Assembly (NCBI GenBank): GCA_000004695.1
Contig: CM000155.2
Coordinates: forward strand, 576,001 to 640,000
Length of the DNA stretch: 64,000 bases
Reading direction: 5' to 3'
DNA from: Dictyostelium discoideum
Lineage: Eukaryota
Part shown: positions 1,524 to 43,503 of the stretch, one piece after another
Layout: each line of letters opens with the position of its first letter
Numbering within the stretch: position 1 is the stretch's first letter
Notes under the pieces: model-generated
The model's database searches: none
What the model was told of the DNA's origin: nothing
What the model saw: only the letters and a program-made list of their open reading frames with translations
Made by a program: the position numbers and the translations under genes

Positions 1524-1636
1524 ACTTTATTAAAAAAAAAAAAAAAAAAAGATAAAATAAATAAAATAAAAAAAAGTGATATAATAAGAATTTTATTTAA
1601 TTCAATTTTAAGGTTTATCCAAATTGAAAAAAGTAA

Positions 1637-10136: not shown

Positions 10137-10210
10137 GTTCGGATGGTGTAGTCGGTTATCACGAATCCTTAACACGGATTAGGTCGTGGGTTCGATTCCC
10201 GCTCTGAATA
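10137..10210 (+). tRNA. tRNA-Val (anticodon AAC)
   Basis: Cloverleaf folded by hand. Acceptor GTTCGGA/TCTGAAT (2 G.U pairs), D arm GTGT-AGTCGGTTA-TCAC, anticodon stem AATCC/GGATT with loop TTAACAC, variable loop AGGTC, T arm GTGGG-TTCGATT-CCCGC. It closely follows the human tRNA-Val-AAC layout. A T6 Pol III terminator lies 10 nt downstream. Confidence 0.85.
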
Positions 10211-10242
10211 CAACTAGCTTTTTTGGGTGATTTCACATATCA

Positions 10243-12384: not shown

Positions 12385-13494
12385 CAACAACAACAATCAC
12401 AACAAAAACCTAATCAAGTAATTACAAATAATAATAATAATAATAATTTAGAAGATTTTTCATTTAGTGGAATGCATCATATTTTTGATCAACATAAAAA
12501 ATCAATAACTAGAATTAAATTTGCAAAGAATAGTAAAGAGTTATTAGGATTTTCAAGTGAAGATGGTGGATTAAGTATTGTAAAGTTATTACCAAATGTT
12601 GAGATTATTTCTACGTTAAAGTGTGATTCATCGATAATCGATTTCGAATGGTGTAATAATAATCAAGAGATAGTGACTGCAACATCTAATGGTGTAATTA
12701 AATTATTTCAAAATAATGGTGTTGGTGGTGGTAACATCCAACTTTTGAAAACATTTGGTAAAGAGTTGTCAATAACATCAATAGTTTCAATATGTTTACA
12801 TCCAATCAAACCAAATCTACTATTCATATCAGAGGGTGATAATAAATGTATCATAAAGTTAATCGATATATCAAGTGGTAAAATTATTACTAAAATTAAA
12901 GTTCATTCAACTATTACAAGTATGCAATTCGAAGAGAAAGGTACTTATTTATTCTTGGCTGATCAAAATGGTATGATTTTAATATTTAAATATGATTTTA
13001 GTAGTGGTAGTGGTGGTGGTAGTGGTAATTTATCAATGGTATCAAAAACTCAAATTACAAATAATTCAATGCCAATCACTAGTATACAAGTACATTATTG
13101 GTATTCAAATGCACAGAAACCACCAGTATTATCGATACTTTCAAATTCAAAAGATTCAAAAATGAGAGTATTTATTGTGAAAAGTTTATCAACTGGTAGT
13201 TTTGTCCTATTTAGAGAGATTAATGTACCTTGTAAATCGTTATCAATAAAGAGTTGTTTCTCACCATTGGTAACAAAGAATAGACAAGGTGCTTTCTTGG
13301 TTACTGGCTCTGAAGATTCAATCATTTACATTTACGATATCAATAAAAAAGATAAACCTTGTATTAATCAATTAATGGGTCATGCTTCTGCTGTAATCGA
13401 TGTAGCTTGGAATCATGATGAATCTTTATTAGCAACCTGTGATACTTCAGGTATTGTAATAATTTGGAATAGATCAAATTTAAAAAAAAATTAA
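12031..13494 (+). CDS. WD40-repeat protein, WDR13-like
   Basis: 487-aa ORF. The N-terminal RNHLLDQKSNKFILRDKGDRRDEYLQKRYQLLDSKYK resembles the WDR13 N-terminus. A poly-Thr/Asn linker follows. WD-like repeats run to the C-terminus (LATCDTSGIVIIWN). Confidence 0.65.
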
Positions 13495-17857: not shown

Positions 17858-18552
17858 GTATCTGTTCGTTTATTATTTTTTTATTTAATACACACAAACA
17901 CAATTATTTACTTATTTGTTCTTATTGCACAAAAATGCCAACATATGGAACTAAATTAAAAAAAAAAAAAAAAAAAAATTAAAATAAAATAAAAAATTTA
18001 AAAAAAAAATTAAAAAAAAAATTAAAATTAAATGGAAGTAACAGATATGGTTTTGTTGTCTTTTAATTTTTTTTTTTTTTTTTTTTATAATTTTTTTCAA
18101 AAAAAAAAAAACTCGACAGTGTTTTAAAGAAAATAAAACCTAAAATGGTAAAAAAGTTTATTTTAAAATAATGAACCCTTTTTTATTATTATTTTTTTTT
18201 TTATAATATAATAAAAAAATAACACACAAAAAAATTGATATATGATTATAAGATTGTAAATCTAAATCTAAAAAAAAAAAAAAAAAAAAAAAAAACATAA
18301 ACTACGATGATCTTTTTTATTTATTATTTTTTTTTTTTTCTTTATTTGTTTATTTTTAAAAAAATCGTATCCTTCCTGCCTTTTATGGACACACAATATT
18401 AAATATTTCTTTTAAAAAAAAAAAATAATTGAAATTGTTATAATAAAAAGACATTTGTAATTTATATTAGTATTTTTTTAATATTATTTTTAAATAATTT
18501 TTTTTTTTTTTTAACAAACCACTACAAAACAAAACAAAACAAAACAACACAT

Positions 18553-18594
<42 letters not shown>

Positions 18595-19949: not shown

Positions 19950-22900
19950 ATGGAAAATCAAAGAATTTATAATATTAATTTAGATTTACTAAAAGATAAT
20001 ACATTAAATGGGAAAAATAATTATTATCCATCAACTTATTTAATTGAAGAATTAATAAAGATATTTCAAAATACTGATTTAATAATACCAATCTTTGAAT
20101 TTAAACCACCATTTATAATAGATAATGAATTGGAAAAATTTTATTTGCAAACAGAAATCATTGAAATTAATTCAAAAGAATATGAAATAAAATTCAATTT
20201 TAAAGATAATAAAACAAACCAATGGAATCAATTTTCAAAAGGAAATTTCTTACTATCAACTAATAATAATTATAATTTTAATGAAAAAGAAGTAGATTAT
20301 ATTGAAAATTTGAAATCTAAAATTTGTAATTTTACAAAAGTTTCAAAAGATGAATTTATAAATTTTATAGATGAAAAAACTGGATTAAAATATAATGGAA
20401 TTTTTAATAACAATATTAAAGATTGTTTAATTGGTGATAATTGTTCTTTACTAGTTGTATCATTGGAAGGATGTCAAAACCAAAATTTATTTTTTAATAA
20501 ACCTTTATTTAATATATTTTTAAGTGGTATGTTAATATTGGTTGATAGAAAATGTAAATTGAATTTTAATAAAATTGAAGGACTTAAATATTATTCACCA
20601 AACAATCTACCAAAAGATAAGGATCAATTAATTTCAGAAATTTATATTTATTCAAAATTAATTTCATCAAAAACAATTTCCTCAAATTCATATTCAGCAT
20701 CTGTAAAAGTTTTATTACCAGATGGAACTTTATTATTTGATATTGATAGAGTTGAATATAAATCATTAACATCTATTAAACCAATATCAATTGAACCACC
20801 AAATGATCATATGTATTCAGTTTATCAACAACCATTGAATTCATTAATTAAATCACCATTAAAATTTAAATCAAAATATCAAAATAAAATCAATGATTTA
20901 AATCATTTTCTAAATTACCAAGATGGTTCAACATCAAATTACAATGATTTCATTACAATTCAAAATCAAATTATTTCAAATATTGTAAAAGAAGTAATAA
21001 AACCAATTTTAAATGAAAAAATATTATTTAGAATATTAGATTTTCAAGGAGAAATAAATTCAACAACAATTATTTTAGAAAAGATAAATTCATTATTTGG
21101 AAAATTTCCAAATTTCCAAATTGATATTGAATATACAATAAACAATAAAAATCCACCAAAAAACAGTATACCAATTAAATTTGATAAAATTTTTAAAGAA
21201 AATAATTTAAATAATATATGTATAGTTATAAAAGATTTTAATTTAGTTAAAGATCAATTTAAAAATGGAGAAAATAACATTGAATCATATTATGATTTTA
21301 TAATAATATCAAATTTAAATTTAAATGAAAATAATTTAAAATCATTACTATTACAAATAAATCAATTATTAACTCCAAATGGTCATTTATTATTAATGGA
21401 ATTTAAATCAAAAATTTCATTTAACAAAAATAATTTAGAAAAATTATTAATTGAATGTAATTATTGTAATGATTTTGTAATTTTTTTAGATGATTCAACA
21501 CCATTATTGTTAATTCATACACAAAAACAAAATATACAATTATTTAAAAATATTTCAATCTCTAATGATTCAGAACAAATATTAAATAATTTATTATTTG
21601 AAAATATAATAATATTTGGTAATAATAATAATATTGACTTTAAATTGATTTATAAAAATAATGAAAATTATAAATCAATTTATCAAATTTCAAAAATTAA
21701 TGAAATAAATGAAAAATTAATAACCGATAAATCAATAATTTATTTTATAAAAACAATTGATAAACTTTTAATTGAAAATTTTAATGAAATAACTTTTGAA
21801 TATATTCAAATTAATCAAATGATAATGAAATTAAATAGTAAATGTAAACATGTTTTATTAGCAAAAGATATAAAAGGTGAAAATTATTTATCATCATCAG
21901 TAATAGGTGTTTCAAGATACTTTGATCAAATTCCTCAATTAGAATTATTTACAATAGATTTTGACAATAATTCAATTGATTCAATTTATAATGTTATTAA
22001 CGAATTAATTAATTCTAAAATTAATTGGTGGCAAAAAGAATTTACAATTAAAAATAATGAAATTTATTTTGAAATATTTAAAAAGGAATCAAAATTTATA
22101 AATAATATATTTAAATCAAATTCATATGAAAAAAATCATAATGAAATGATTACAAAAAAAAATTATAAAATTGTAGAAAAATATTTAGGTAATTCAATTT
22201 TAATTACAGGTCAATCAGGTTTTGTTTTAGAGATTTATAAATGGATAATTAATTATTCTGAAAGTGTTAAAAATATTATTATACTTTCAAAATCAAAATT
22301 AAAATGGGAATTAGAATTATTAATTAAAAAAAATAAACATATTAATTTCATTTTTAAAAGTATTGACGTTGGTAATACAAATGCAATGGAAGAAACAATA
22401 AATATAATTTTAAAAGAAAATTCAAATATAATTAATATTGATTCAATATTTCATTTCGCCGTTGAATATTGTACAACACCAGATCCTTTAGAAATTACAA
22501 TTAAAAATTTGGAGATTTCAAATTGTGCTAAAACAATGGGTGCAATTAATTTACATAATCAATCAGTTAAAAGAAATTGGAAATTAATTAATTTCATAAT
22601 GGCATCATCGGTTGCATCTTTATTTGGTGTAAATAGTCAATGTAGTTATTCAAGTTCATGTTATGTAATAGATTCATTGTCAGCATATAGAAAATCAATT
22701 GGATTACCATCGATTTGTACAAATTATGGTGTTTTAGGTGAAGCAGGACTATGTTCAAGAGTTCAAATGATACAAGATTTTACATTAAAATTGGGTTATG
22801 AACCATTACCTGCCAATATGGTATTAGGTGCATTAGATTTACAAATTCAAAACCAAAATATAGTCCCACTAGATTTTATACTCTCTAAACTTAATTTTAA

Positions 22901-22979
22901 CTTATTTAAAAACAGTAATCAAAGATTACTTAAAAAATTTGATTTTTTATTTAATTCAGTAAATATAAAAAAAGAATAA
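19950..22979 (+). CDS. free-standing polyketide-synthase fragment protein (DH-like / degenerate C-MT / KR-like region only; no KS, AT, ER or ACP)
   Basis: 1009-aa uninterrupted ORF in AT-rich DNA. The C-terminal 300 aa carry KR-domain signatures of Dictyostelium type I PKSs (ILITGQSGFVLEIYKWI..., FIMASSVASLFGVNSQCSYSSSCYVIDSLSAYRKSIGLPSICTNYGVLGEAG). The middle resembles a decayed C-methyltransferase (ILDFQGEINSTT..., TPNGHLLLMEF). AT-rich intergenic DNA lies on both sides, so it is not truncated by the window. Confidence 0.6.
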   Translation: MENQRIYNINLDLLKDNTLNGKNNYYPSTYLIEELIKIFQNTDLIIPIFEFKPPFIIDNELEKFYLQTEIIEINSKEYEIKFNFKDNKTNQWNQFSKGNFLLSTNNNYNFNEKEVDYIENLKSKICNFTKVSKDEFINFIDEKTGLKYNGIFNNNIKDCLIGDNCSLLVVSLEGCQNQNLFFNKPLFNIFLSGMLILVDRKCKLNFNKIEGLKYYSPNNLPKDKDQLISEIYIYSKLISSKTISSNSYSASVKVLLPDGTLLFDIDRVEYKSLTSIKPISIEPPNDHMYSVYQQPLNSLIKSPLKFKSKYQNKINDLNHFLNYQDGSTSNYNDFITIQNQIISNIVKEVIKPILNEKILFRILDFQGEINSTTIILEKINSLFGKFPNFQIDIEYTINNKNPPKNSIPIKFDKIFKENNLNNICIVIKDFNLVKDQFKNGENNIESYYDFIIISNLNLNENNLKSLLLQINQLLTPNGHLLLMEFKSKISFNKNNLEKLLIECNYCNDFVIFLDDSTPLLLIHTQKQNIQLFKNISISNDSEQILNNLLFENIIIFGNNNNIDFKLIYKNNENYKSIYQISKINEINEKLITDKSIIYFIKTIDKLLIENFNEITFEYIQINQMIMKLNSKCKHVLLAKDIKGENYLSSSVIGVSRYFDQIPQLELFTIDFDNNSIDSIYNVINELINSKINWWQKEFTIKNNEIYFEIFKKESKFINNIFKSNSYEKNHNEMITKKNYKIVEKYLGNSILITGQSGFVLEIYKWIINYSESVKNIIILSKSKLKWELELLIKKNKHINFIFKSIDVGNTNAMEETINIILKENSNIINIDSIFHFAVEYCTTPDPLEITIKNLEISNCAKTMGAINLHNQSVKRNWKLINFIMASSVASLFGVNSQCSYSSSCYVIDSLSAYRKSIGLPSICTNYGVLGEAGLCSRVQMIQDFTLKLGYEPLPANMVLGALDLQIQNQNIVPLDFILSKLNFNLFKNSNQRLLKKFDFLFNSVNIKKE

Positions 22980-23997: not shown

Positions 23998-25077
23998 TTA
24001 AATGCTTTGTTGTTTGTGGTTTATAATGAGTGTGTATAATTTTGTTGTTTGGTTTTTTGTTAGTGACCAGTTTTTGTTTCCATTGCAATTTTTATATATA
24101 AAATATTTTAATTTGTCGTGGTTTATGAAGTTGATTGTGTGCTGACAATTGAAAAACAAATGACCATAGGGATCATTATTCATTTCATTGTTGCAAATGG
24201 GGCAAACTTTGTTGTGTAGATGATTAATCGGAAGACATCTAGCATGGAATCTTTGCATTGTATCACGCCCTTTTGGATCTTTTAATTTTTGAATTTTGAC
24301 AAATAGTTGGTCGTATGTGTATTTCCATAATAGTTGTATTGATTGTTGGTGCGAAGTAAGAAGTAGATCTGAATATTTCTTGCCAATATAGTCTTTTGAT
24401 TTACATTGGTGATTGTTGAGTATTGTCGAGTAGATTTCTTTGAGTGTTGGTGGTAGTGGAATATTATTTGTGTTTAATGTTTGAGAGGTTTGATTTTTTA
24501 TTAATATTGGTTGTAGGATTTGAACTTTATCTTTTAGATGTCCAATTTGAGTTGCATAGTTTTCCCATTCTCTTTTGATTTTTATAAGGTATGGAGAAGA
24601 GATTGATTTGTTGATGATTTGATCCATCCAACTTATCATGTATATTGAATTATTTGCCGATTTATGCATTTGTAAAAATCTGTTGTATATCCAAATCTTT
24701 TGAGCAACTTGTCGTAATTGTATATTCCACATACCCCAACCACCTTCTTTTAATGGTTTTAATGATCTATCATAACACATCAAAGGTATTTTTGCACGTG
24801 AATGGATGGTTGATGTGTTATTTTCAATGGAATTGGCATTGAGAGTTGGTGATTCAGAATTTGTGGGAGAATTCATAAACCATGAGATTAATTTATTAAT
24901 TTGAATTTCTTCATCTTTTGTAAATTCTTCAAGGTATGATAAATATGTTATTGGTGATAGTGAGTAGGTGTTTATGATGGTTGTTTTTGTTTTTAATGTT
25001 GTGCCACTAGTTTTCCATAGTACTAATGATTTATTCAATGTTTTCATTGTTTCTGGTAATTTCCATATGTAAACCAT
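23998..25077 (-). CDS. C-terminal part of ORF2 (zinc-knuckle domain), in a different frame from the RT part (frameshifted copy)
   Basis: 359-aa ORF overlaps the end of ORF 25031..27367 by 47 nt. It contains HARCLPINHLHNKVCPICNNEMNNDPYGHLFFNCQHT, which is conserved in the second element in this window. Confidence 0.6.
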   Translation of the reverse strand: MVYIWKLPETMKTLNKSLVLWKTSGTTLKTKTTIINTYSLSPITYLSYLEEFTKDEEIQINKLISWFMNSPTNSESPTLNANSIENNTSTIHSRAKIPLMCYDRSLKPLKEGGWGMWNIQLRQVAQKIWIYNRFLQMHKSANNSIYMISWMDQIINKSISSPYLIKIKREWENYATQIGHLKDKVQILQPILIKNQTSQTLNTNNIPLPPTLKEIYSTILNNHQCKSKDYIGKKYSDLLLTSHQQSIQLLWKYTYDQLFVKIQKLKDPKGRDTMQRFHARCLPINHLHNKVCPICNNEMNNDPYGHLFFNCQHTINFINHDKLKYFIYKNCNGNKNWSLTKNQTTKLYTLIINHKQQSI

Positions 25078-27367
25078 TATGATTAAAGAAATAGCTAAGG
25101 ACTCTTTCTGATTGATCTTTTTTGGTTATTGGTATTCTTTTTGATTGTGGAGTATTGTTTATTATGTGTTTATCAGTGATTTTGTGGGGGTTGATTTCTA
25201 TTATTGCACTTTTGTCAAAATTTAATGATGATGATGTTGAAGCGCAGAAATTATCGAAATGTTTGATTGATTGTTGTTGTTGTTCGTAGTTGATGTTGTA
25301 TGTTGTAGAGTCGTCTGCAAATTGGGTAAATTTGATTTTAATTTGTGGATTGGGTGAAATTGGTAAACCAATTATTGAATTGTCTGCATTTATTGTTCTT
25401 GCTAATATTTCAATTACAATTACAAATAAAGTGGCTTGTTTTACACCTTGTTTTACACCTCTTTTAATATCGAATTTTCTGGTTGTTTTACCATTAATTG
25501 AAATTTTTGCTTGTGAGTCAGATAATAGCTTGTGGATTAAATTTATTAATTTTATTGGTATACCAATATGAATTAATGTTCTTTTAATACTATCGTGAGA
25601 GATAGAATCAAATGCTTTAAAGAAGTCAAATAGTGTGATGATACCAGGGAGGTTTTTAGATTTGAGGTAGTTGATTAAATCATTGATGTTGATGATGTTG
25701 TCTATGATGAATCTGTGGGGTACGAAACCAGTTTGGTTGTTGTTGATGATGAAAGGAAGTATTCTCAGAAGACGTGCATTGATTACTTTTGAGAGGATCT
25801 TGTAATCAGTGTTTAGAAGTGTAATGGGACGACGATTTGATATGAGTAACGGGTTGCCTTTCTTGTATATTGTGTGTATAAGACCTTCGGTGAATTCTGT
25901 TGTGATGTGGTGAGGATTTTCTAGTATATCGTTGAATAATGTAGTGAGAATTGGTTTAACTTGGTTTAAATGATTAATGTAGAATGCATTTGTAACGCCA
26001 TCTGGACCGGGTGATTTGTTGGGGTTACAGGTTTTAATTGCAGCTTCAACTTCATCTTGTATAAATGGTGAGTCTAAACCATTCCAATATTCATTTTTTA
26101 TGATGGGCCATGTGTTTAGCATGAGCTGGTGAGTAATTGGACAACATATTTGTAAGCTATATAGATTTGTGTAGAATTCAACAAACGCATTTTCAATTTG
26201 GTCGGGGTCGGATGTAATGATGTTACCATATTGGATTGATTCAATTTTTGCATCTTTTGATCTTTTGTTTAGTATTGCTGATAGATACTTGCTAGGTATT
26301 TCTCCATTTATATGTTTTTTTAATATGTTTGTGTGGTTTTGATGTAGTTTGTTTTTGTTACATATAATATTGTATTCAGCGATGCATTGTTCTTCAAGAT
26401 GTTTGAATTTTGCTGCTTTTTCTAATAGTATTTGTTTTGCACGTTGAGTTTGTTTGTCTTTGTTATATTGATAGTTTTTTAGAGTTTTTATAATTTTTGA
26501 TTTTACTTTTGACCAGTTTGTAAATTGATTGATTGATGTGTTATTGTGATTAGTTATTAAATGATTGATAATATTGATTGCTTCATGGTCATTTGCAGTA
26601 CCAGGTGATAATATCCATCTTTTCTTATGTTTATTTATTTGAAAAGGTGAAGAAATTGTTGTTGATATTGGATTATGATCTGATAATGAAGATGGAATTT
26701 GGTGGACTTGTGTATATATATTTTCAGGGTCTATTCTATTGTATTGAGTATATATTCTATCTAATCTGTTGCCATGTGTATGAGTTGGAGTGTTTTTAAA
26801 TTCACCTTGATCAATTAGATGGTGTTGGTATGTGTAGGATTGGATAATATCATCTAATAGTGAATTGTCGTTGTGGATACAGTTGAAATCTCCTGCGATA
26901 ATAGATACATGTTGGGATTGGTTTGGTATTGGGTTTGTTGAGTGGTTGTGGAGAAGTGTTTGTAGTGAAGTTGCATATGAATTCTTTTTGATGGTATTAT
27001 TTGATGCTGGTGCGTAAATTCCAAGAATACCAATTGGTAATTGATTTGGAAATATAACGTCTGCTAAAATAGCTCTACCATCAATTGTTGATATGTGTTT
27101 GAGTTTGAGTGTGTTTGGGTTATGGTTAATGATGATTACACCATTTCCTCGTTTGGTGACAGAGATGATGTGATCGGGAAAATCATGTTTAAGTTGTAAT
27201 GGTGATGAATTGAGTTCAGTGAGTATTGAGATTGTTGGACGAGGTGGAAGTTTTGATATAAGTAGTTGTAGTGTGTCAACAGCTTTTTGGTAGGAATTGT
27301 GTTGATTGTTTGGGTTTTCAGTGAATCCTCTACAATTCCATGTTATAAAGTTGATTTTTGAGCTCAT
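25031..27367 (-). CDS. retrotransposon ORF2, AP-endonuclease + reverse transcriptase domains (778 aa)
   Basis: N-terminal EEP-nuclease-like MSSKINFITWNCRGF...IIAGDFNC. RT motifs PGIITLFDFFKAFDSISHD, KRGVKQG, QFADDSTTY. Confidence 0.8.
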   Translation of the reverse strand: MSSKINFITWNCRGFTENPNNQHNSYQKAVDTLQLLISKLPPRPTISILTELNSSPLQLKHDFPDHIISVTKRGNGVIIINHNPNTLKLKHISTIDGRAILADVIFPNQLPIGILGIYAPASNNTIKKNSYATSLQTLLHNHSTNPIPNQSQHVSIIAGDFNCIHNDNSLLDDIIQSYTYQHHLIDQGEFKNTPTHTHGNRLDRIYTQYNRIDPENIYTQVHQIPSSLSDHNPISTTISSPFQINKHKKRWILSPGTANDHEAINIINHLITNHNNTSINQFTNWSKVKSKIIKTLKNYQYNKDKQTQRAKQILLEKAAKFKHLEEQCIAEYNIICNKNKLHQNHTNILKKHINGEIPSKYLSAILNKRSKDAKIESIQYGNIITSDPDQIENAFVEFYTNLYSLQICCPITHQLMLNTWPIIKNEYWNGLDSPFIQDEVEAAIKTCNPNKSPGPDGVTNAFYINHLNQVKPILTTLFNDILENPHHITTEFTEGLIHTIYKKGNPLLISNRRPITLLNTDYKILSKVINARLLRILPFIINNNQTGFVPHRFIIDNIININDLINYLKSKNLPGIITLFDFFKAFDSISHDSIKRTLIHIGIPIKLINLIHKLLSDSQAKISINGKTTRKFDIKRGVKQGVKQATLFVIVIEILARTINADNSIIGLPISPNPQIKIKFTQFADDSTTYNINYEQQQQSIKHFDNFCASTSSSLNFDKSAIIEINPHKITDKHIINNTPQSKRIPITKKDQSERVLSYFFNHNGLHMEITRNNENIE

Positions 27368-28572
27368 ACCTTACTAGGTTTGGCAGCACCAGTATTGACT
27401 GGTTGTGTAGTCAGGGCATTGCTGCTTCTTCTTGTATTTATTGTATTTGGAGTTGGTGCACTTGGTTTGTTTGGTTGAGATTGTAGAGGTTTTTGTGGTA
27501 CAATTGTTGGATCGGTTGGATTGCTCATTGATAATGAGTTTTTCCCGTTATTATTATTTGAAGAATCACTTTTGTGTGAAATTTCATTATTGTTTTGGGA
27601 TTGATTGTTAATATCAAGTGATTCATTTAGTATAGCTTTTGAACCACTATTTTGAAGTGAGTTATTATTGCGATTGGAATTTGCAATTTCGTTGATTGGT
27701 GGGGTGTTAATGTTGTTTTTTGGTGGTTGATTGTTTTTGTTCATGTTTGGGTTTGTGATGGCATTTTTTATAGTTGTTGCCATATCTGCATTTTTTGCAT
27801 GTTGAATTTTGTGTTTAGTGACACTACGTGTTGCAGCTTTGATATATCTTGTGATACCAGATGGTTGTTCGATCTTTTGATCAACAATGTTGTGTGTGTG
27901 ATCAATTAGATGATATGTTATAATGTAGCTTTTAAACGCAACAGCATATGAGTATGTGACAGTAAATGATTCAATTGATGTACAACTGGTGAATTTAGTG
28001 AGGTTGTTTGTAATTGCATCGTTTGCATGTTTGGGTGAGTACGTTTTAATGAATGTTTTAATGATTGCATAATCATTTGATGATATATCGAATCTATAGT
28101 TGAGTTTGTCGATATTTAGTGCAAGTTGGTTTTGAAGGTTGATTATTGAAGTTAATTTATCAACGTTGCAATTTACGAAGGCAGTTGCACCAATTATTTT
28201 GAATGCTGATGGCGACAGTATATCTTCGAAGAGTTTGTGAATGTTTTTGTGAATTTGTTGAATTCTTGTGTCATCTTTTGAGGTTAATTCTTCACGGATG
28301 TGTGGTTGATTAAAGTAACACTTAATGTTGATGGTGTTATTGTTTTTTTCTAAGAAAGAGAGTGGTCTTGTGATTGATGGAGGTGCAATGATATCTAATT
28401 GATTATCAAGTCCTTTGTTTAGTGAGAGTTGGTTTGTTGGGGTTTGTTTTTTAGGTGTGTCGATTTTTGCACTTTTATTTTTTGTTGTTGAGGTTGTGGA
28501 GGTATTATTTGTATTGGTCGTGTTGTTATCTGTATGATTTAACTGTAATTCAGTTGAGTGATCATCAGCCAT
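27364..28572 (-). CDS. retrotransposon ORF1 (402 aa)
   Basis: ORF track entry. Ser/Thr/Asn-rich and basic. Its stop overlaps the ORF2 ATG as ATGA. Confidence 0.7.
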   Translation of the reverse strand: MADDHSTELQLNHTDNNTTNTNNTSTTSTTKNKSAKIDTPKKQTPTNQLSLNKGLDNQLDIIAPPSITRPLSFLEKNNNTINIKCYFNQPHIREELTSKDDTRIQQIHKNIHKLFEDILSPSAFKIIGATAFVNCNVDKLTSIINLQNQLALNIDKLNYRFDISSNDYAIIKTFIKTYSPKHANDAITNNLTKFTSCTSIESFTVTYSYAVAFKSYIITYHLIDHTHNIVDQKIEQPSGITRYIKAATRSVTKHKIQHAKNADMATTIKNAITNPNMNKNNQPPKNNINTPPINEIANSNRNNNSLQNSGSKAILNESLDINNQSQNNNEISHKSDSSNNNNGKNSLSMSNPTDPTIVPQKPLQSQPNKPSAPTPNTINTRRSSNALTTQPVNTGAAKPSKV

Positions 28573-28763
28573 TGTTGAAAAGTATATAGGACGATAGCCC
28601 TTGCTTTAATGAGCAAAAAAAGGGTAAAATTAAGAGGAATGAATGTGGCGGTGAAGATATAACAGTGATTTATTTATTATATGTATAAATTCTCGTTTAT
28701 TTCTTTGTTTTTTCGGTTTTTTTTTCGTTTTTTTCGTAAAAAATATATTTCCCAAAAACAATG

Positions 28764-28843
28764 TGGAAGATGAGGGACTCGAACCCACGACCCCGGAGGA
28801 TAGAGCCTAAATCTATTGTCTTAACCATCTCGACCAATCTTCC
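28764..28843 (-). tRNA. tRNA-Leu (anticodon UAG), class II with long variable arm
   Basis: The reverse complement folds by hand. Acceptor GGAAGAT/ATCTTCC, D arm GTC-GAGATGGTTAA-GAC, anticodon stem ATAGA/TCTAT with loop TTTAGGC, variable arm CCTCCGGGGTC, T arm GTGGG-TTCGAGT-CCCTC (one T-T mismatch). The layout matches human tRNA-Leu-TAG. A T5 terminator lies downstream on the minus strand. Confidence 0.75.
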
Positions 28844-29688: not shown

Positions 29689-30323
29689 AGCATTATATCA
29701 TCATCATCATTAAAATTACAATCACTATTAAATAATAATAATAATGATATGTTTTCAATTTATAGTGATAAAAGAGAGAGATGATTGAACAAAAATCCTA
29801 TGAAATTTCAAAACTCAAAACAAAAAAAAATTGTGGTTGTTACTGTCATTACTTAAGCCATTACTATTAATAGTCTTTCTAATTAGTGCAAGAGTATATT
29901 CTAAATGGTTAATTCTATATAGAAACATCATTTTTTCCTTTTTAACTAGTTTAATGTAAGCCAATATTGATCATTATAAATAAAGGAACACACAATTAAT
30001 ATTATATGAATGCTGTAAAGCGTGAATCAAAACTAACTTTATTTTTTTCATTTTTTTCAGTTTTTATAATTTTCGATCGAGGAGTTTCCAACGAAAACTC
30101 TAAAATATATAAAAACAAAATAAATTATTTTAATTATTATTTTAATTATTATTGTTTAATTGTTATTCATTATTATTCTTATTATTATTAGTATTATTAA
30201 TTTTTTTTTTTTTTTTTTTTAATATTGGATTAACAAGATTGATATATGTCCATCTGTGTTAATACGAGTTTTTATTTAATATTTATTTATAGGCTTATCA
30301 TTTAAGCTGAAGGGTTATTTTAA

Positions 30324-33300
30324 TCATATGAATTGATCAAAAGATATAATATTTGGGAGAGATGATTCTGGAATACAATAGTAATTAGCTGTTGTTTTTC
30401 TTAGCTTGATCGTTGAGGTGAGAAGGATCTTAGGATCTTTGAAATTATTATGGTCTTTTGCTGATAAGTTTTTCAGATCTTTTGCTTTTTTGATGTATTC
30501 TAGAGTGGCCAATTTGTGCCATTTCTTTAGAAGGGAGCTGTATGATAATGATTCATTTGTTAAAGGATCTTCACTGTATATTTGATTGCAAATCCAAATC
30601 CAAATGTTGTGGAGGATAAGGGCCATTAGGTTTCTATATGCGAATGATCTGGTTAGATCATAGTCTATTGCTTTATAGTTCCATTCAAAGTATTCTTTGT
30701 GGAATCTGTGGTTGGCGTAATCTGCATTCACTTTTTGATCTTTTTTGGCTGTCGGTGATAATTTTGGAGTTATTCTATTAATGAAATTGTTATTTTGCCT
30801 AATTCTTGTATGGTGCCAGTTTTTACCTTTGCCTGTGGTAATATAGATGAAATTTTTGAGTTTATTTATTTTTATGAATTGTTTTGTTTTCTTGCATGAG
30901 AAGAACAGGTGACCGTATGGGTCTTTGCTCATATCTTCTTTGCAGAGTGGGCATTGTTTGTTGTGAAGATAGTTTATTGGAAGGCATCTGGCATGGAATC
31001 TAAACATTGTGTCTCTTGTTTTAGGGTCTTTTATCTTCAGTATGTTGTTGAAGAGTTGATTATAGCTGTAGCCTCTTAAGTTTAGAGATGATTGGAATTC
31101 CGTTTTAGGGATGGTTGGATTTTGGTCTTGAATTGTGGTATACCATTCTGCCAGTGAAAGTGGTTGTCCATTTTCGTTTTTTATGGATGTGAGATTATTG
31201 TTGAAGATTGCTTTTTTTATTCTTATTTTGTTCCATTCGTCTAAGTTTTCTTTTAGGTATCTGGATGTGAATTTGTTTTTTTGGATCTGATATTCCCAGC
31301 TTTTGTGATGAGATGAGTTTGTTTGTTTGGTTTCTAGTGCTAGGATGAACTGGTTTATGATCCAAAGTTTCTGCGCCAGTTGTCTCAATTCTATATTCCA
31401 AATGTTCCAGCCCCCTACTTTTAGTGGGTATCTTGCTCTTTTGGTTCTCATTAAATTAATAACTTGAAATCCACTAGCATTTTTGTTGTTTGGTGCCGAT
31501 AAAAACCATTCGACTAATTTATTGATTTGGTTTAATTCCTCTTCCTTAAAGTTCTCTACATATGAATAGTAGGTTAATTTAGAGAGTGCGAATGCTTTGA
31601 GGATGTTGGTTTTGGTTTTTATTGTTGAGTCAGTGGTTTTCCATAGTACTAAGGATGATCTTATTGTGTTTAATATTTCTGGCATTTTTCTTGTTATCCC
31701 TTTACCTGTGAAGAAGTATCCCAAGTATCTTTCTGGATTTGTAGATATTGGAATTCTTTGGTTGGTATTGTCTGGGTTGCCTATAAGAATTGATGAAGAT
31801 TTGTCGATGTTTAGTTTTGAGGAAGTGGCTTTGCAAAATGAATTGAAGTGTTGTAGTACTAATTCAAGTTGTTGAGAGTCTGGGACCATTGAAGCCGAGT
31901 CGTCTGCAAAGCTTTGGAATTTCTCTCTGTGGTTGCTGTTGTTTAGAGGAAGGCCAGTAATTCGATCATCTTGTAAAATTTTTCTAGCTAAAGCCTCTAT
32001 TACAAGGACGAACAGTGTGGGTGATAGTGGATCTCCTTGTTTAACTCCTCTTTTGATCTCAAAGGGTATAGTAATTTCAATTCTTGCTTCAGATTTGGTG
32101 AGTAGATTCATTATCAGGTTGATTATATTGGTTGGAATGTTGATGTGTTGTAGTGATCTAAGTATTGAACCGTGTGAGATCGAGTCAAAAGCTTTTTCGA
32201 AATCATATAGTGTAATTATTCCGTTAATTCTTTTATCATTACAATAGTTGATTAATTCGTTCATTGATATGATATTATCTAGAATGAATCTGCCTGGTAC
32301 GAAACCTTTTTGATTGTGGTTGATCACTTTCGTTAGTATTGGGATTATTCTATTGTTTATTAGCTTTGAGTGGATTTTATATATCCAGTTAGCCAGTGTA
32401 ATTGGTCTTCTGTTTTTGATTAGTTCGGGGTCTCCCTTTTTAGGTATCGTGATAATGAGGCCTTCTTTGTAATTTTTGCTAATTAGATGAGGATTTCTTA
32501 GAGTGTCGTTGAATGCTGAGGCCAGTATTGGAGCTAGTTTTTCTTTGTGTGTTATGTAGAATAAGTTTGGAATTCCATCTGGGCCTGGAGATTTGTGTGG
32601 GTTCAATTGTTTTATTACTTCTAGGATCTCTTGTGATGTGAATTCATTTTCAAGGTTGTCCCATGTTGAGTCCCTGGTCACTGTCCAATTTTCCAACATT
32701 TCATAATGAGATGGTGGGTCATCTTCTTTGTAGTCATAAAGATTTGAGTAATATTTTACGTATTCTTCTTCGATCAATTCCTGTTTGTTGATTGTTCTAC
32801 CTTGTGCATCTTTTACTGCGTTGATGGTGAAATCATTGTGTCTTTTCTTGATTCTCGCGGAGATGTACTTGAGTGAGGTTTCTTCGCAATAGTTGTTCAA
32901 TTCTTGTTTAAGTTGTTCTTCTCTTTTTTTAGATTCATTTATTGCTGAAAGGGTTGCGAAGGCTTGGTCTTTAAATTCTGTCTCTAGTAGGGAGATTAGA
33001 TTTTTGATGTTTGCCTTATTGTTGTAGTCATTTTGTTTTTGAAATTCTGTGTATAGTTGTTTTATTTTGTTTAGTAAGCTGTTGAGTTGAGAGAAGGAAA
33101 TAGAGTTATGGTTGGATGACAGCTCCCTTGAATAATCGTTAAGTAGGAAGTCTATTTTCTTAAGCATTATGCTTGAGAGGATTGAGGATTTTTTTAATCT
33201 CCATCTGCGCTTGTTCATCTGTATGTTGGGTAGAGTGAAGGTGGTTGATAGGAAGTTGTGATCTGATAGAGGTATGTCATTAATTTTTGGGGGGATTAGG

Positions 33301-34016
33301 TTCCTTAAGTATAATTGGCTGTAGTTGATTATGCTATTGTTAAGGTATATTCTGTCTAGTCTCCTTTCCAAGATTCTTGTGAGGTTATTGTTTGTGTTGT
33401 GTATCGTTCTTGAGAAGGTGGGTCTTTTATTTAGTTGGTCCATATCCATTAGGTTATTTGAAATTCTGATGGCTTCGATTACTGTGGCCATCTCATCTGG
33501 GGATTGTGTTGTCAAGTTGCCTTGGTCATCATTTGATGTGTGATTGTCATTGAAGTCTAAACAATTGAAGTCGCCTGCTATGATGTCGATGTTTTTTTTA
33601 GGGTTAGACGTTAGGTTGTGGTATTGGTTGTTGAAGTGTTTGTTTAGTGTTGAAGCTAGTATTTTTCTTTTATCAGGTTGGGCCGGGGCGTATATGGCCA
33701 AGATTCTCGTTGTGGTATCTTTTATTAGAATGTCTGATATTATTAGTCTACCTTCTATTATGAATATTGGTGAGAGTTTTATGTTTTGGTTGTTGTGGTT
33801 TAGTATTCCTATTCCGTTGCCTCTTTTGGTTGCGCTAATGATGGAGCCAGGGAATAGCTGGTGTGCTTGTGTTGCGTCGGCGTTGAGTTCATTGACTATG
33901 GTTAGTGCCAATGAGTTTGGGGGGGATTGGGATTTGATAAAGTCTGTTTTGTTTTTGAAGGAGGTGTCAGTGCCCCAACCTCTGACATTCCATTGGTTGA
34001 TTTTGATTACTACCAT
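30324..34016 (-). CDS. retrotransposon ORF2: AP-endonuclease + reverse transcriptase + zinc-knuckle, intact 1230 aa
   Basis: MVVIKINQWNVRGWG...IIAGDFNC (EEP nuclease). RT motifs NGIITLYDFEKAFDSISH, KRGVKQGDPLSPTLFVL, FADDSA. C-terminal CPLC...DPYGHLFFSC. Confidence 0.85.
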   Translation of the reverse strand: MVVIKINQWNVRGWGTDTSFKNKTDFIKSQSPPNSLALTIVNELNADATQAHQLFPGSIISATKRGNGIGILNHNNQNIKLSPIFIIEGRLIISDILIKDTTTRILAIYAPAQPDKRKILASTLNKHFNNQYHNLTSNPKKNIDIIAGDFNCLDFNDNHTSNDDQGNLTTQSPDEMATVIEAIRISNNLMDMDQLNKRPTFSRTIHNTNNNLTRILERRLDRIYLNNSIINYSQLYLRNLIPPKINDIPLSDHNFLSTTFTLPNIQMNKRRWRLKKSSILSSIMLKKIDFLLNDYSRELSSNHNSISFSQLNSLLNKIKQLYTEFQKQNDYNNKANIKNLISLLETEFKDQAFATLSAINESKKREEQLKQELNNYCEETSLKYISARIKKRHNDFTINAVKDAQGRTINKQELIEEEYVKYYSNLYDYKEDDPPSHYEMLENWTVTRDSTWDNLENEFTSQEILEVIKQLNPHKSPGPDGIPNLFYITHKEKLAPILASAFNDTLRNPHLISKNYKEGLIITIPKKGDPELIKNRRPITLANWIYKIHSKLINNRIIPILTKVINHNQKGFVPGRFILDNIISMNELINYCNDKRINGIITLYDFEKAFDSISHGSILRSLQHINIPTNIINLIMNLLTKSEARIEITIPFEIKRGVKQGDPLSPTLFVLVIEALARKILQDDRITGLPLNNSNHREKFQSFADDSASMVPDSQQLELVLQHFNSFCKATSSKLNIDKSSSILIGNPDNTNQRIPISTNPERYLGYFFTGKGITRKMPEILNTIRSSLVLWKTTDSTIKTKTNILKAFALSKLTYYSYVENFKEEELNQINKLVEWFLSAPNNKNASGFQVINLMRTKRARYPLKVGGWNIWNIELRQLAQKLWIINQFILALETKQTNSSHHKSWEYQIQKNKFTSRYLKENLDEWNKIRIKKAIFNNNLTSIKNENGQPLSLAEWYTTIQDQNPTIPKTEFQSSLNLRGYSYNQLFNNILKIKDPKTRDTMFRFHARCLPINYLHNKQCPLCKEDMSKDPYGHLFFSCKKTKQFIKINKLKNFIYITTGKGKNWHHTRIRQNNNFINRITPKLSPTAKKDQKVNADYANHRFHKEYFEWNYKAIDYDLTRSFAYRNLMALILHNIWIWICNQIYSEDPLTNESLSYSSLLKKWHKLATLEYIKKAKDLKNLSAKDHNNFKDPKILLTSTIKLRKTTANYYCIPESSLPNIISFDQFI

Positions 34017-34981
34017 TATGAGATGATATCGATCTCCTCTTGGGAGTCGTTTAGCTGCGGTTTGGATGGTGAAGGGTAGATACTCTCTATGAAGCTCTCA
34101 ATGATTCCTTTCCTTTCTTTTTTGACAGGTGTCTTAGGGGTGGATGGGATGTAAGGGTTGCTTCTGTTTATTGTTGGTGAGAGTTGGGTGACTTCATTGT
34201 TTGAGTGGATTTCCTCGTTCTTGCGTTTATGTGATGGAGGGATGTTTAGTGTCTTCTCTCTGTTTTCCGAGGATGAATGGATGTTAGTGCTTGTTTTGTT
34301 GGCATTGTCTTTTTGGATGGCGTTGGATGTTGTGGTAGTGGTTGTGGTGGGTTTGACAGATTGAGATTCTGCTGGGTTTTTGGGGGGAAGAGGTTGAGAT
34401 GACTTTTTTGCTTGGGCTTTTTTCTCTTGTGTTGATTGTTTATCAGACTGATTGTTTGCTGGGTTGTTTGTTTGGGTGTTAGGAGGATCTGTCATCTCAT
34501 CTTCTAATGGTTCCTCCGTGTTGTTTGTCTCTACTTTCTTGTTTTTCTTTTGTGAGGAGTAGGTTTTGGTGGCCGTTCTGATGGTAAAGTTTGCGATTTC
34601 TGTAATGTGTTGGCCAGATTTCATTTGATCGCCTATTTTGCATTCTATTAGACCGAATACTATGAGGTGGTCGGTGGAGTATATAGTATTGTATATTGCA
34701 TAGGGTATTTCTTCTGCAAAGGCAGTTTTGATGAGGGCGTCCACTATTCCTGCCTTTTCTCTGGGAATTCTTACTCTTCCTGTGAGGACGTGGAAGTCTC
34801 TACTGGAGGTGATGAAGGTTCCCAATTTGCTTCTATCTCTAATGATATTTAGGAGAGATTGTTCGTTTTTAATCATCAGGTGGATCATTTTTCTAGTTCC
34901 TTTGCCTATGTATATCTTGTCGATTGGGATATCGTAGTTTGAGAGTGTTTTTCTCATTTCTTCTAACCCCTTGAGATCCAT
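34016..34981 (-). CDS. retrotransposon ORF1 (321 aa)
   Basis: ORF track entry. Its stop codon shares one nucleotide with the ORF2 ATG (TAATG). Confidence 0.65.
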   Translation of the reverse strand: MDLKGLEEMRKTLSNYDIPIDKIYIGKGTRKMIHLMIKNEQSLLNIIRDRSKLGTFITSSRDFHVLTGRVRIPREKAGIVDALIKTAFAEEIPYAIYNTIYSTDHLIVFGLIECKIGDQMKSGQHITEIANFTIRTATKTYSSQKKNKKVETNNTEEPLEDEMTDPPNTQTNNPANNQSDKQSTQEKKAQAKKSSQPLPPKNPAESQSVKPTTTTTTTSNAIQKDNANKTSTNIHSSSENREKTLNIPPSHKRKNEEIHSNNEVTQLSPTINRSNPYIPSTPKTPVKKERKGIIESFIESIYPSPSKPQLNDSQEEIDIIS

Positions 34982-35278
34982 TTTGGGGAATTCGAGTGTA
35001 ATTGGGTAGAATCCGTTGTTCTTCTCCTAGGTTGAGAGCGCAGTCATGTTCAATATGGTCTCGCAGTATTTGGAGATGTCTTTGAGGCCTATTGATAGTT
35101 TGGGGTAGGTCTCCTTTATCTCTGCTGTTTTTGTGGAGAATTCCTTAATGAAGTTCTCCGATGCCTCGTCCATATGGGTGGAGGGGTTGGCCATTTTAGC
35201 CGCGTCTGCGTAGGAATTCATCTCGATGGGATTGCTTTGAATCGCCGATTTGGTAAGCTAGATCTGCAGATCGCGCCG

Positions 35279-35378
35279 NNNNNNNNNNNNNNNNNNNNNN
35301 NNNNNNNNNNNNNNNNNNNNNNNNNNNNNNNNNNNNNNNNNNNNNNNNNNNNNNNNNNNNNNNNNNNNNNNNNNNNNN
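35279..35378. other. assembly gap (100 N)
   Basis: N run. Confidence 0.95.
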
Positions 35379-35443
35379 TTGAAAAAAACAATCACCCACA
35401 ACAATTTTTTTTTTTGAATATTTCATTTTTCAAATAAAAAAGC

Positions 35444-35488
<45 letters not shown>

Positions 35489-35563
35489 GGAACCAAGTTA
35501 ATTAGAAAATTTCCAGATTTTTAACTTTTTAAAGAAAAATAAAAAAGATAGAAAGAAAATAAA

Positions 35564-36898
35564 ATGAAAATCACAAACAACACCACAAATATTAAGCAAC
35601 ACAAATGCCTACAAAAAATAAGCGAAATTGTGGATAAAACTCAATTAAAAAAAAAACAATTCAAATACGTCATAAACATCAATCACGAACCAGACGATAA
35701 AATAAAAAAAGATTTAGAAAAAAGTTTGGACAAAAAAGATGTTTTAATCAAAAGTAATAATACATTCAAAATTCTCACAGACAGTATTAGTACAGTAATC
35801 TATTTTGTAAATATGTTTGATGCAGAATTAAAAGGACAATTTATAACCACTATAAGACCAAAAAATATGTATACAGATTTTGATTGGTATAAATCACTCA
35901 CAGAAATAGAATGGGTAATAGAAAATGAAGGATGTAAACTAATTAAATCAGAAATTAAAGGCGAAACTCTAATTATCAAAACAGTGAAAAGAGTCGTAGA
36001 AGAATTTGACACTATCATTGAACTAGACAATCTAACATTAATTGGACACTCCAACAAAGGATGGAGAGATCAAACCTCATTACCAGAAAATCAAGAAGAA
36101 AACAAAAATAAAAAACAATCAGATGAACAACAACCACAATCTACATCAGAACAAATACCAAAACAAGGAAAAAGAACAATCATTATCCCACCAATCACAT
36201 CCTCATCTAATGATAAAACATTTATGGCCCTAGATGATACAGCTCAAAAGGTAATAGAAGCATCACTAGAAAACGTAGATGAACTAACAAGAATAGAGAA
36301 TGAGATCAATACACAATCGATAAACAATCAAGAAATTAAAACAAAATCAGAAAAACCTATCGAACCACCATCTCCATACAATACACCAATAAAACAACAC
36401 GGCGAAACAAAGGGACTAACAACGGAAGAAAAACTTAGAGAGGCAAATGATATCTTCGACTTCACCAGCCCAAACACTGATGCAATAAGAAAAATAGAAT
36501 TCCCACTTTCAATCCCTTCAAATCAATGGTTCTTCTCCTCTCCAATAAAACATATCATGAGTTTCAGCCCAACCTATGGTACACCATCGAAAATTATCGA
36601 TTCACCAAGTAAATTGTTAAACACACCAAAAAAGAAACAACAAGACAAAACAAACAAGACCAACAAAACACCAGTCAAACCAAAATTGGGTGAATATGGA
36701 CAAAAAAGCATAAAAACAAAAATGGATGAAGATATAGACAACTTCAACAAGGAAATTCTAAAACAAATCAATAAATCAAAAAACCCCACAAACACACAAG
36801 ACCAACAACACAATGAACAAAGTAAAGATCAGTTAGAAGACAAAATAAACCAGAAACTTCAAAAGGTAGATAAAAATCTACCCCAAATAAAACTATAA
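35564..36898 (+). CDS. TRE5-A-like ORF1 protein (444 aa)
   Basis: ORF track entry. The identical N-terminal 63 codons recur at 37297..37485. Confidence 0.6.
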   Translation: MKITNNTTNIKQHKCLQKISEIVDKTQLKKKQFKYVININHEPDDKIKKDLEKSLDKKDVLIKSNNTFKILTDSISTVIYFVNMFDAELKGQFITTIRPKNMYTDFDWYKSLTEIEWVIENEGCKLIKSEIKGETLIIKTVKRVVEEFDTIIELDNLTLIGHSNKGWRDQTSLPENQEENKNKKQSDEQQPQSTSEQIPKQGKRTIIIPPITSSSNDKTFMALDDTAQKVIEASLENVDELTRIENEINTQSINNQEIKTKSEKPIEPPSPYNTPIKQHGETKGLTTEEKLREANDIFDFTSPNTDAIRKIEFPLSIPSNQWFFSSPIKHIMSFSPTYGTPSKIIDSPSKLLNTPKKKQQDKTNKTNKTPVKPKLGEYGQKSIKTKMDEDIDNFNKEILKQINKSKNPTNTQDQQHNEQSKDQLEDKINQKLQKVDKNLPQIKL

Positions 36899-37152
36899 AG
36901 AAAAACACAATAAGAATAGGTGTTTGGAACGTCCAAGGATCCAACACCATCCAATCTGCCAGCATAATAAACACCGTTTTAGACAACAACAAGCTGGACG
37001 CAGCACTTCTAACTGAAACAAATATAAAAACAAATAAAATTTACTCAATAAATCAACAATATAAAAACAAAATAACACACCACGCACCAATTGATAAAAC
37101 AGGACAAGGGGTGTCACAAATCATCATCAACACCCGCAATAGAACTTCCTAA
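36874..37152 (+). pseudogene. truncated ORF2 (N-terminus of AP-endonuclease domain) in the -1 frame relative to ORF1
   Basis: The open frame KKNTIRIGVWNVQGSNTIQSASIINTVLDNNKLDAALLTETNIK... ends at TAA 37150..37152. This is far too short for a full ORF2. Confidence 0.5.
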
Positions 37153-37194
37153 ACATCTCAAAAAATACAATAATTCACTCAGTACTTTCTATAA

Positions 37195-37253
<59 letters not shown>

Positions 37254-37296
37254 CCAGTTTATTCAGAAAAATTAAAAAAGATAGAAAGAAAATAAA

Positions 37297-37497
37297 ATGA
37301 AAATCACAAACAACACCACAAATATTAAGCAACACAAATGCCTACAAAAAATAAGCGAAATTGTGGATAAAACTCAATTAAAAAAAAAACAATTCAAATA
37401 CGTCATAAACATCAATCACGAACCAGACGATAAAATAAAAAAAGATTTAGAAAAAAGTTTGGACAAAAAAGATGTTTTAATCAAAAAGACCCTGTAA
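37297..37497 (+). pseudogene. 5' fragment of a second ORF1 copy (63 codons) fused to 3'-end sequence
   Basis: Identical to 35564..35752, then it diverges into the repeated 3' unit. Confidence 0.6.
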
Positions 37498-37566
37498 AAA
37501 AAAAAAAAAAATAAAATGAGATCTAGCATCTCAAGGAGAAGCAAATAATAATTGCGTTATCCAATT

Positions 37567-37602
<36 letters not shown>

Positions 37603-37735
37603 GAACCAAAAAAAAAAAAAAAAAAAAAGTAAACTAACCCCTCTTTTAGAGACCCTGTAAAAAACTACAAATAAAATGAGATCTAGCATCTCAAGGAGAA
37701 GCAACTAATAATTGCGTTATCCAATTCAAAAAAAG
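37487..37735 (+). repeat. two tandem ~85-bp 3'-end (C-module-like) units, each followed by oligo(A)
   Basis: AGACCCTGTAAAAAA...TAAAATGAGATCTAGCATCTCAAGGAGAAGCAAMTAATAATTGCGTTATCCAATTCAAAAAAA occurs at 37487..37569 and 37649..37735. Confidence 0.5.
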
Positions 37736-37951
37736 GACTTATTATTAATCCCCATTAAAAAAAGACTTTTAATATGAATAAATATTAAAAAAAAAATGAA
37801 AATGATTGGAAATAAGTTTATTATATATTTATTTAAAGAAACAACTATAAAAAATGTTTAATCAGCTTTTTTTTTAAAATCAGTTTATTTGAAATTTATC
37901 AAATAAAAAAATAAAAACTGGAAATTATTGGAAATTAAGTTTTATTTTAAT

Positions 37952-40504
<2,553 letters not shown>

Positions 40505-42162: not shown

Positions 42163-43497
42163 GAAGTCCAATAGATGATAGAAGGAATACTCCATTACCA
42201 CCACCACAACAACAACCAATTACACCAAACCAACAACAACAACCACAAATACAACAGCATCAACAAATACAGCCACCTCAACAACAGCAACCAATATATA
42301 ACCCTTATCCACCATATCCATATTATCAAACNNNNNNNNNNNNNNNNNNNNNNNNNNNNNNNNNNNNNNNNNNNNNNNNNNNNNNNNNNNNNNNNNNNNN
42401 NNNNNNNNNNNNNNNNNNNNNNNNNNNNNNNTTATCAACCTCCACCAAATCCATATTATTATAAACATCCACCACCAGCACCACATTATGTTCCACCTAA
42501 TCCTTATTATCAAATTCCACAACCCCCACCAGCACCACAACCACCACAACCACCACAACCACCCCAACCACCACAAGCACCTCTACCACCTCAACCACCT
42601 CAACCACCCCAAGCACCTCAACTACCTCAACAACTAATTCCATCACAAAAACAAGAGCATCAAAATATAAGTAGAACGTCAGCTTCAGTAATAGCAGAGG
42701 CAACAGCTGCCTCATCAAATAATCAAAAATTAAACTATCAACCACCACCACCAAGTTATTATCAACATCAACAACAACAACCAAATAATTATCAGCAACA
42801 ACAACAACAACAACAACAATCATCACCATTACCACCACCAAATTATTATTTAAATCCATTATCACAAACTCCAATTGATCCACAAATGGCAAGTACATCA
42901 GCAAATTTAATTGATAGAGAGTTAGAGAATGAACAATTTTATCCACCAATTCAAAGTTTCTCAGCCAATATTTTAGCAAATGGACAAACATTAAGCAATG
43001 TTAATTTTAATAATCAAACCTTGAAGAACATTACCTTTTTAAATAGTACAATATCGGCAAGTCGTTATCAACATACAAGATTCGAAGGTTGTATCTTTCA
43101 AGAATGTAACATCAATAGCAGTTCCTTTATCGAATCTGCATTCATTGATTGTATATTTATGAATTGTAATATCAATGGTTGCGATTTCTCAAAATCAACC
43201 CAAGAGAACTGTTATCATGTCAATAGTGATATCTCCAATTGTAATTTCTTTCAATCCTCTGGTAACAATGTCAAATATGTCGCTGTCACTATGTTAAATA
43301 ATAATTTCGCTCATAGTATTCCTCGTAGTACATTCTGTAGATGCAACCTAACAAATGCTCAATTCTCAAATTGTAATCTCTCAAAAACAAGATTTAAAAT
43401 CTCACAACTCAATTATGCTAATTTTGTCTCTGCTTATTTCGACCTTCCATTAGACCATATCTTTGATCAAAGATCTGAAAGAAAACTTTGTAAATTT

Positions 43498-43503
<6 letters not shown>
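41344..43503 (+). CDS. RING-type + C2HC (TRAF-like) zinc-finger protein with Pro/Gln/Tyr-rich middle and C-terminal pentapeptide-repeat domain; 3 exons: 41344..41364, 41557..41872, 41953..43503 (exon 3 contains assembly gap 42332..42431)
   Basis: Exon 1 MADDGEL ends at the GTATGC donor. Exon 2 encodes LECVICYCPLIDPVEH...CKQCVCTLKSCPICR and CNVCKKETTRKEIKSHVESC. It ends at the ATTA|GTATGT donor (phase 1). Exon 3 follows the acceptor CACAG|AG. Its C-terminus is built from 5-residue repeats (CIFQECNINSSSFIESAFIDCIFMNCNINGCDFSKS...). The frame across the gap cannot be checked. Confidence 0.55.
42332..42431. other. assembly gap (100 N)
   Basis: N run. Confidence 0.95.

Follow-up and report, generated by a model that had tools for sequence, protein, structure and literature searches.

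[quoted passage not shown] TRE5-A.2 is a non-autonomous AB-ORF1-BC derivative of TRE5-A.1 that has a large deletion of ORF2 and an 87-bp C-module (PMC3159450). The DNA analysed here (the window, 64,000 nucleotides of D. discoideum AX4 chromosome 6) resembles the tRNA genes that carry both a TRE5 and a TRE3 (PMC5006619, PMC5391098) in having a TRE3 that points its 5' end toward a putative landmark in the same orientation, a TRE5-A that stands head-to-head with it, and a TRE5-A/TRE5-A tandem. It differs from them in that its central sequence of at least ~0.5 kb, including the tRNA gene, is unsequenced, with the landmark predicted from the geometry and from an orthologous locus. The gap would accordingly be an unclosed stretch within a typical tRNA-gene-centred retrotransposon cluster. 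The features of the window on which this reading depends are as follows, with loci used for comparison designated by L numbers.

About 23998-28660, minus strand: TRE3 "element 1", with endonuclease (APE) and reverse transcriptase (RT) domains in ORF2 and its 5' end ~100-155 bp downstream of tRNA-Leu
28763-28843, minus strand: tRNA-Leu(UAG), found by ARAGORN and Rfam, landmark of element 1
29864-29929: unique sequence to the left of element 2; its homologue in L017 (18306-18370) lies 116-180 bp beyond the 3' end of tRNA-Glu(UUC)
30201-35278, minus strand: TRE3-type non-LTR retrotransposon "element 2", recognized by its RVT_1 domain, its ORFs, its identity to other copies and the 5' UTR in L016 and L008
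35279-35378: assembly gap of exactly 100 N, predicted to hold the missing parts of both elements; L017 has the orthologous tRNA-Glu
35379-37598, plus strand: one TRE5-A.2 non-autonomous retrotransposon (AB-ORF1-BC), recognized by identity to ten copies and by its module structure (PMC3159450)
35379-35445, plus strand: last partial A-module unit of TRE5-A.2
35446-35485, plus strand: internal A-run
35486-35753, plus strand: 5' B-module, which contains the start of ORF1
35564-36898, plus strand: ORF1 (444 aa)
36899-37199, plus strand: ORF2 remnant (301 bp), 100% identical to other copies
37200-37252, plus strand: internal A-run
37253-37486, plus strand: 3' B-module, 90% identical to 35450-35753
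About 37487-37570, plus strand: 87-bp C-module, followed by the poly(A) tail to ~37598
37599-37735, plus strand: 137-bp C-module remnant, all that is left of an older TRE5-A copy with heavy 5' truncation; its 37604-37734 part shows 90% identity to the C-module of the full-length TRE5-A.1 in L003 (9297-9436)
37736-37951: intergenic flank that originally lay upstream of the predicted tRNA, with 37777-37960 homologous to L017 18624-18798

The initial annotation described a minus-strand TRE3-like element that runs its 5' UTR into the gap, and the RT domain, the ORFs and the alignment of the UTR all confirm this. Element 2 has an ORF1, an ORF2 that encodes both APE and RT, and a poly(A) tail (the T-run at 30203-30222), the combination by which TRE3 elements are recognized. 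The RT domain of ORF2 (30324-34016) matches Pfam RVT_1 with E = 1.7e-32; the endonuclease domain, which is clear in element 1, matches Exo_endo_phos weakly (E = 0.0021, below the cut-off of that model). Like the described TRE3 family (PMC5006619, PMC5911963), element 2 measures ~5.2 kb, its two ORFs overlap by 1 nt, ORF2 encodes APE and RT, and a poly(A) tail is present; in other copies of its type the start of the element lies downstream of a tRNA of the same orientation, at a distance of 75-118 bp (75 bp in L015, ~100 bp in L016 and 118 bp in L009). Unlike that family, it has a premature stop in ORF1 (34016-34981 and 35030-35221, with the start ATG at 35221): a TAG at 35027-35029 replaces a tyrosine of the intact homologues (P0001, P0002; 417 aa), because of which this copy is predicted to be unable to make a full-length ORF1 protein. 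Homologues of element 2 are named 'hypothetical protein' in the database; its size, abundance and behaviour indicate that it is probably TRE3-A. Copies in L008, L009 and L015 share 98.7-99.1% identity with it. The visible 5' UTR (35222-35278) is the last 57 of ~163 nt, and since the 5' UTR is 163 nt long in the full-length copy in L016, which follows tRNA-Ser(AGA) in the same orientation, ~106 nt of element 2 are predicted to be missing into the gap. The 5' end of TRE3 within the gap would be expected to read ...CCGTACCGCGATCAAGAGG.

On the other side of the gap, 35381-37581 matches ten TRE5-A copies over 2.2 kb at 97.7-98.8% identity, which bears out the earlier recognition of a plus-strand TRE5-A-type element directly after the gap. 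What had been taken for an array of TRE5-A-like copies is really one TRE5-A.2 followed by the 137-bp remnant. The A-run at 35446-35485 might suggest the poly(A) tail of a further element that stops at the gap, but this is rejected, since the run is internal in all ten reference copies; 37253-37486 is likewise rejected as a second TRE5-A copy, being the canonical 3' B-module. With its AB-ORF1-BC modules, large ORF2 deletion and 87-bp C-module, the element at 35379-37598 belongs to TRE5-A.2 as described (PMC3159450); it shares with that system the 444-aa ORF1 of many genomic copies (identical at at least 11 places in the assembly GCA_054883475.1), the 301-bp ORF2 remnant and the duplicated B-module. 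It is unlike TRE5-A.2 in its first ~70 bp, the partial A unit, which has ~10 mismatches to the consensus before 78 bp of perfect identity; these mismatches are most simply low-quality bases of a contig end. The A-module, which is the TRE5-A promoter module, is a 199-bp unit, the first of which is expected to read GATCGAAAAAAAC... at this locus. In nine of the ten reference copies, 1-21 full units are followed by one last partial unit (positions 1 to ~72), after which comes the A-run. The outermost unit is slightly 5'-truncated in L001 and L002, and L008 has no A-module. The right contig starts at position ~3 of this last partial unit, and because every reference copy that retains the A-module has a unit, full or slightly 5'-truncated, before the partial one, at least one further 199-bp unit should be expected in the gap. 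The C-module remnant at 37599-37735 is placed as expected of a TRE-TRE tandem in which a later insertion of TRE5-A.2 pushed the older copy outward from the target.

The 5' ends of the two elements face the gap, and up to the contig edges neither shows visible 5' truncation, an arrangement that the published rules describe for a minus-strand tRNA gene lying between them. The geometry was tested on ten TRE5-A copies fetched from GCA_054883475.1, which is gap-free at those loci. In eight of the ten (L001-L007, L015), the first A unit stands head-to-head with a tRNA gene at a distance of 44-58 bp, and L015 is a sequenced example of the full sandwich: TRE5-A, 50 bp, tRNA-Asp, 75 bp and TRE3. At the other two, L008 and L009, a minus-strand TRE3 abuts a plus-strand TRE5-A (junctions at about 9877-9896 and 9567-9613, respectively); neither ARAGORN nor Rfam finds a tRNA gene between the two elements there. 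The only tRNA genes detectable in the window, with ARAGORN and Rfam in agreement, are tRNA-Val (10137-10211, plus strand) and tRNA-Leu(UAG). No tRNA gene is found by either program within 6 kb of the gap, nor by Rfam, even at E <= 1, within 280 bp to its left or 220 bp to its right, where partial tRNAs are lacking too. The tRNA-Leu(UAG) gene is 1.36 kb past the 3' end of element 2, the wrong side and the wrong distance for that element, and the judgement of the initial annotation that the two visible tRNA genes explain neither element 2 nor the TRE5-A holds for both on position and on orientation. For TRE3 geometry, tRNA-Leu(UAG) and element 1 are a control within the window.

The KR-domain ORF of the window (19950-22979, 1009 aa) matches an AX4 protein at 100% identity along its entire length. 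Its homologue in a different D. discoideum strain, GCA_054859355.1 (locus L017), is 90% identical; this strain is diverged, with ~88-93% nucleotide identity to the window. On one contig, in window orientation, L017 has tRNA-Val on the plus strand, the KR gene, and then tRNA-Leu(UAG), tRNA-Glu(UUC) and the DDHD gene on the minus strand. The tRNA-Glu(UUC) gene (18486-18559) scores 56.3 bits with Rfam RF00005, for which the gathering score is 29, and it lies between the homologues of both outer flanks of the cluster. The right-flank homologue starts at 18624, leaving 64 bp between it and the tRNA-Glu(UUC) 5' end, which is compatible with the distance rule for TRE5-A. Neither TRE3 nor TRE5-A was found at the orthologous site, and because the outer cluster flanks align on either side of tRNA-Glu, L017 is effectively the empty site, at which the landmark is a minus-strand tRNA-Glu(UUC) with exactly the strand and the position that had been predicted. 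Comparison with orthologous loci in other D. discoideum assemblies had been proposed as a check by the initial annotation, and this one speaks for its prediction. The proximal flanks (29930-30200 and 37736-37776) give no alignment to L017, so the exact insertion offsets are unconfirmed, and a short-word BLAST search of the visible window with L017 18395-18595 (tRNA-Glu and its flanks) gave only homopolymer hits. The D. cf. discoideum locus L018, lengthened by insertions of LTR-retrotransposons, stops short of the relevant region. No tRNA gene was found near the DDHD locus of D. purpureum, where synteny is not conserved at that distance. At L017 18449-18466, ~20-37 bp downstream of tRNA-Glu(UUC), there is a B-box-like motif, GGTTCGACTC on the tRNA strand, possibly an external B box such as TRE3 is reported to use (PMC5911963).

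Three independent lines of evidence, namely the 5' ends that face the gap, the geometry of the paralogous loci and the tRNA-Glu gene in L017, support the proposal that a minus-strand tRNA gene, the shared landmark of both elements, is hidden in the gap. The probability that such a gene, most probably tRNA-Glu(UUC), is there is put at about 0.85. We infer that AX4 still carries tRNA-Glu(UUC) where the window reads N, and that its sequence on the minus strand would be TCCTCATTGGTGTAGTCGGTAACACTCTAGTCTTTCACACTGGTACCTCGGGTTCGATTCCCGAATGGGGAG or nearly identical. In the mechanism proposed, TFIIIC/TFIIIB (RNA polymerase III factors) bound to the minus-strand tRNA gene would have directed insertions of both kinds. 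[quoted passage not shown] At least two TRE5-A insertions, head-to-head with the tRNA gene, would have taken place ~50 bp upstream: the earlier left the copy that is now reduced to the C-module remnant, and the later was TRE5-A.2, which would have pushed that remnant outward. The predicted content of the gap, from left to right, is ~106 bp of TRE3 5' UTR, a spacer of 40-150 bp, the minus-strand tRNA gene (probably tRNA-Glu-UUC, 72-74 nt), a spacer of ~50 bp and at least one 199-bp A-module unit, which would together probably make the true size of the gap at least ~530 bp.

The junctions at L008 and L009 show that a minus-strand TRE3 can stand against a plus-strand TRE5-A with no tRNA gene between them, and the gap might hold a rearranged junction of this kind, from which a former tRNA gene was deleted, for example by a target-site deletion at integration or by recombination. 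Such tRNA-less junctions exist but involve truncated elements: TRE3 is clearly 5'-truncated at L008 and L009, by 1.1-1.7 kb, and the TRE5-A of L008 lacks the A-module, whereas the elements of the window are intact to the contig edges; tRNA-Glu is, moreover, present at the orthologous position in L017. Deletion of the tRNA gene is improbable on these grounds. A landmark for RNA polymerase III other than tRNA-Glu(UUC), whether another tRNA gene, in its place or beside it, or a solitary B-box, is very improbable. It would accommodate the dependence of the tRNA identity on a single diverged strain, the proximal flanks that do not align, and the tandem tRNA genes at other loci such as L004 and L005, but the tRNA gene content of this locus appears stable, the positions and anticodons of tRNA-Val and tRNA-Leu(UAG) being conserved among the window, L017 and L018.

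It is scarcely credible that the flanks are misjoined or that the left edge is a cloning artefact, either of which would make the juxtaposition of TRE3 and TRE5-A meaningless. The initial annotation called the sequence before the gap polylinker-like and the contig edge possibly artefactual, and BglII and PstI sites at 35260-35272 do have that appearance, as mismatches to other copies do bunch at both contig ends. The bases in question, AGATCTGCAGATCGCGCC, are nevertheless native TRE3 5' UTR, colinear without indels with two other TRE3 copies (L008, L016; plus-strand consensus AGATCTGTAGATCGTGGTGG); the BglII site (AGATCT) is native to TRE3 and the PstI site (CTGCAG) is one base away from the native CTGTAG. 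This base-for-base alignment, with substitutions only, rules out a polylinker or vector origin. The seven mismatches to other TRE3 copies are confined to the ~45 bp nearest the gap and give way to at least 75 identical bp, as would suit a ragged contig end of low quality better than vector sequence. Misjoined flanks, which had been named as evidence that would count against the hidden tRNA gene, are contradicted by the order KR, tRNA-Leu, tRNA-Glu and DDHD; the conservation of this gene order on one L017 contig shows the scaffold join across the gap to be correct, and a correctly joined cluster with tRNA-Glu(UUC) at its centre remains the preferred reading.

The 100-N run at 35279-35378 is one of four of identical length in the window (at 35279, 42332, 51337 and 57315) and is a conventional placeholder, not a measure of true length, as judged from gap 2 (42332-42431), which is really 45 bp of sequence in another public assembly (L010). 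Gap 2 is inside an ORF with Pro/Tyr-rich pentapeptide repeats (42175-43503). At both contig ends beside the gap at 35279-35378, mismatches to near-identical repeat copies are bunched, with seven in the ~45 bp of 35234-35278 and ~10 in the ~70 bp of 35379-35445, and beyond these clusters the adjoining 75 bp or more are identical to other copies, which suggests low-quality consensus at the ends. A contig of the AX4-like assembly GCA_054883475.1 (JBTAPE010000029.1) carries the DDHD gene and stops in the poly(A) tail of TRE5-A.2 (the end of L010, window equivalent 37584); a second, independent assembly likewise fails at this cluster. Look-ups of the exact proteins of element 2 ORF1, element 2 ORF2 and the KR ORF, by which other assemblies might have closed the gap, gave no match.

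The finding is an instance of Dictyostelium TRE biology that is already described, indeed textbook, and it leaves the knowledge of TRE targeting unchanged. At this gap the AX4 reference chromosome 6 is very probably missing one copy of tRNA-Glu(UUC) along with at least ~0.5 kb of sequence, and reference-based tRNA gene counts and catalogues of TRE target sites would be slightly incomplete as a result. The orientation of TREs can be used to predict tRNA genes that are hidden in gaps.

Near-perfect tandem arrays of the 199-bp A-module are present at other TRE5-A copies of GCA_054883475.1, with 21 full units in L006 (5629-9905), eight in L001 (8226-9909), eight in L007 (8218-9905) and seven in L015 (8303-9842); copies that lack a large array have one full A unit, or one full and one 5'-truncated. 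Given these arrays of 7, 8 and 21 full units, it is conceivable, though doubtful, that the gap hides a multi-kilobase tandem array of A-modules in addition to the tRNA gene. The gap could then be several kilobases in size, and amplification of the module there would explain the failure of shotgun assembly at 35279-35378. A full-text literature search for 'A-modules' together with 'TRE5-A' returned no paper. Growth in the copy number of this promoter module could make TRE5-A expression vary in a way not yet described, and could also be a systematic reason for gaps in the AX4 reference.

Element 1 has an ORF2 split by a frameshift (25031-27367 and 23998-25077), and an intact ORF2 of 983 aa is present on a Logan contig; Logan repeat contigs of the element 1 type end at window 28608, and the ORF1 of element 1 is found only on short Logan contigs. 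The element is absent at the orthologous site in L017 (13078-13502), where the stop codon of KR is only 424 bp from tRNA-Leu, and because of this absence downstream of tRNA-Leu element 1 is best regarded as a lineage-specific insertion. On the upstream side of the same tRNA-Leu(UAG) gene, 12-14 bp away, two other Dictyostelium assemblies have an LTR-like repeat of ~240 bp (L017 13595-13824; L018 13297-13532, 15743-15978, 16139-16373 and 19748-19978), to which no match was found in the AX4 window. In L018 it is accompanied by gag, protease and integrase ORFs, and its position upstream of tRNA-Leu is one that we take to be DGLT-A-like.

TREs are said typically not to integrate into each other. 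At L008 (600-9900) and L009 (5259-9613), copies of the element 2 type are inserted in the 3' part of ORF2 of elements of the element 1 type, at three points with window equivalents 24701, 24714 and 24873, which is nested insertion. L009 also has two inverted tRNA-Ser(UGA) genes with identical Rfam scores (1553-1634, plus strand, and 12522-12603, minus strand) that bracket an 11-kb cluster of TRE3 and TRE5-A, in which TRE5-A.2 occupies a non-canonical position downstream of one of them.
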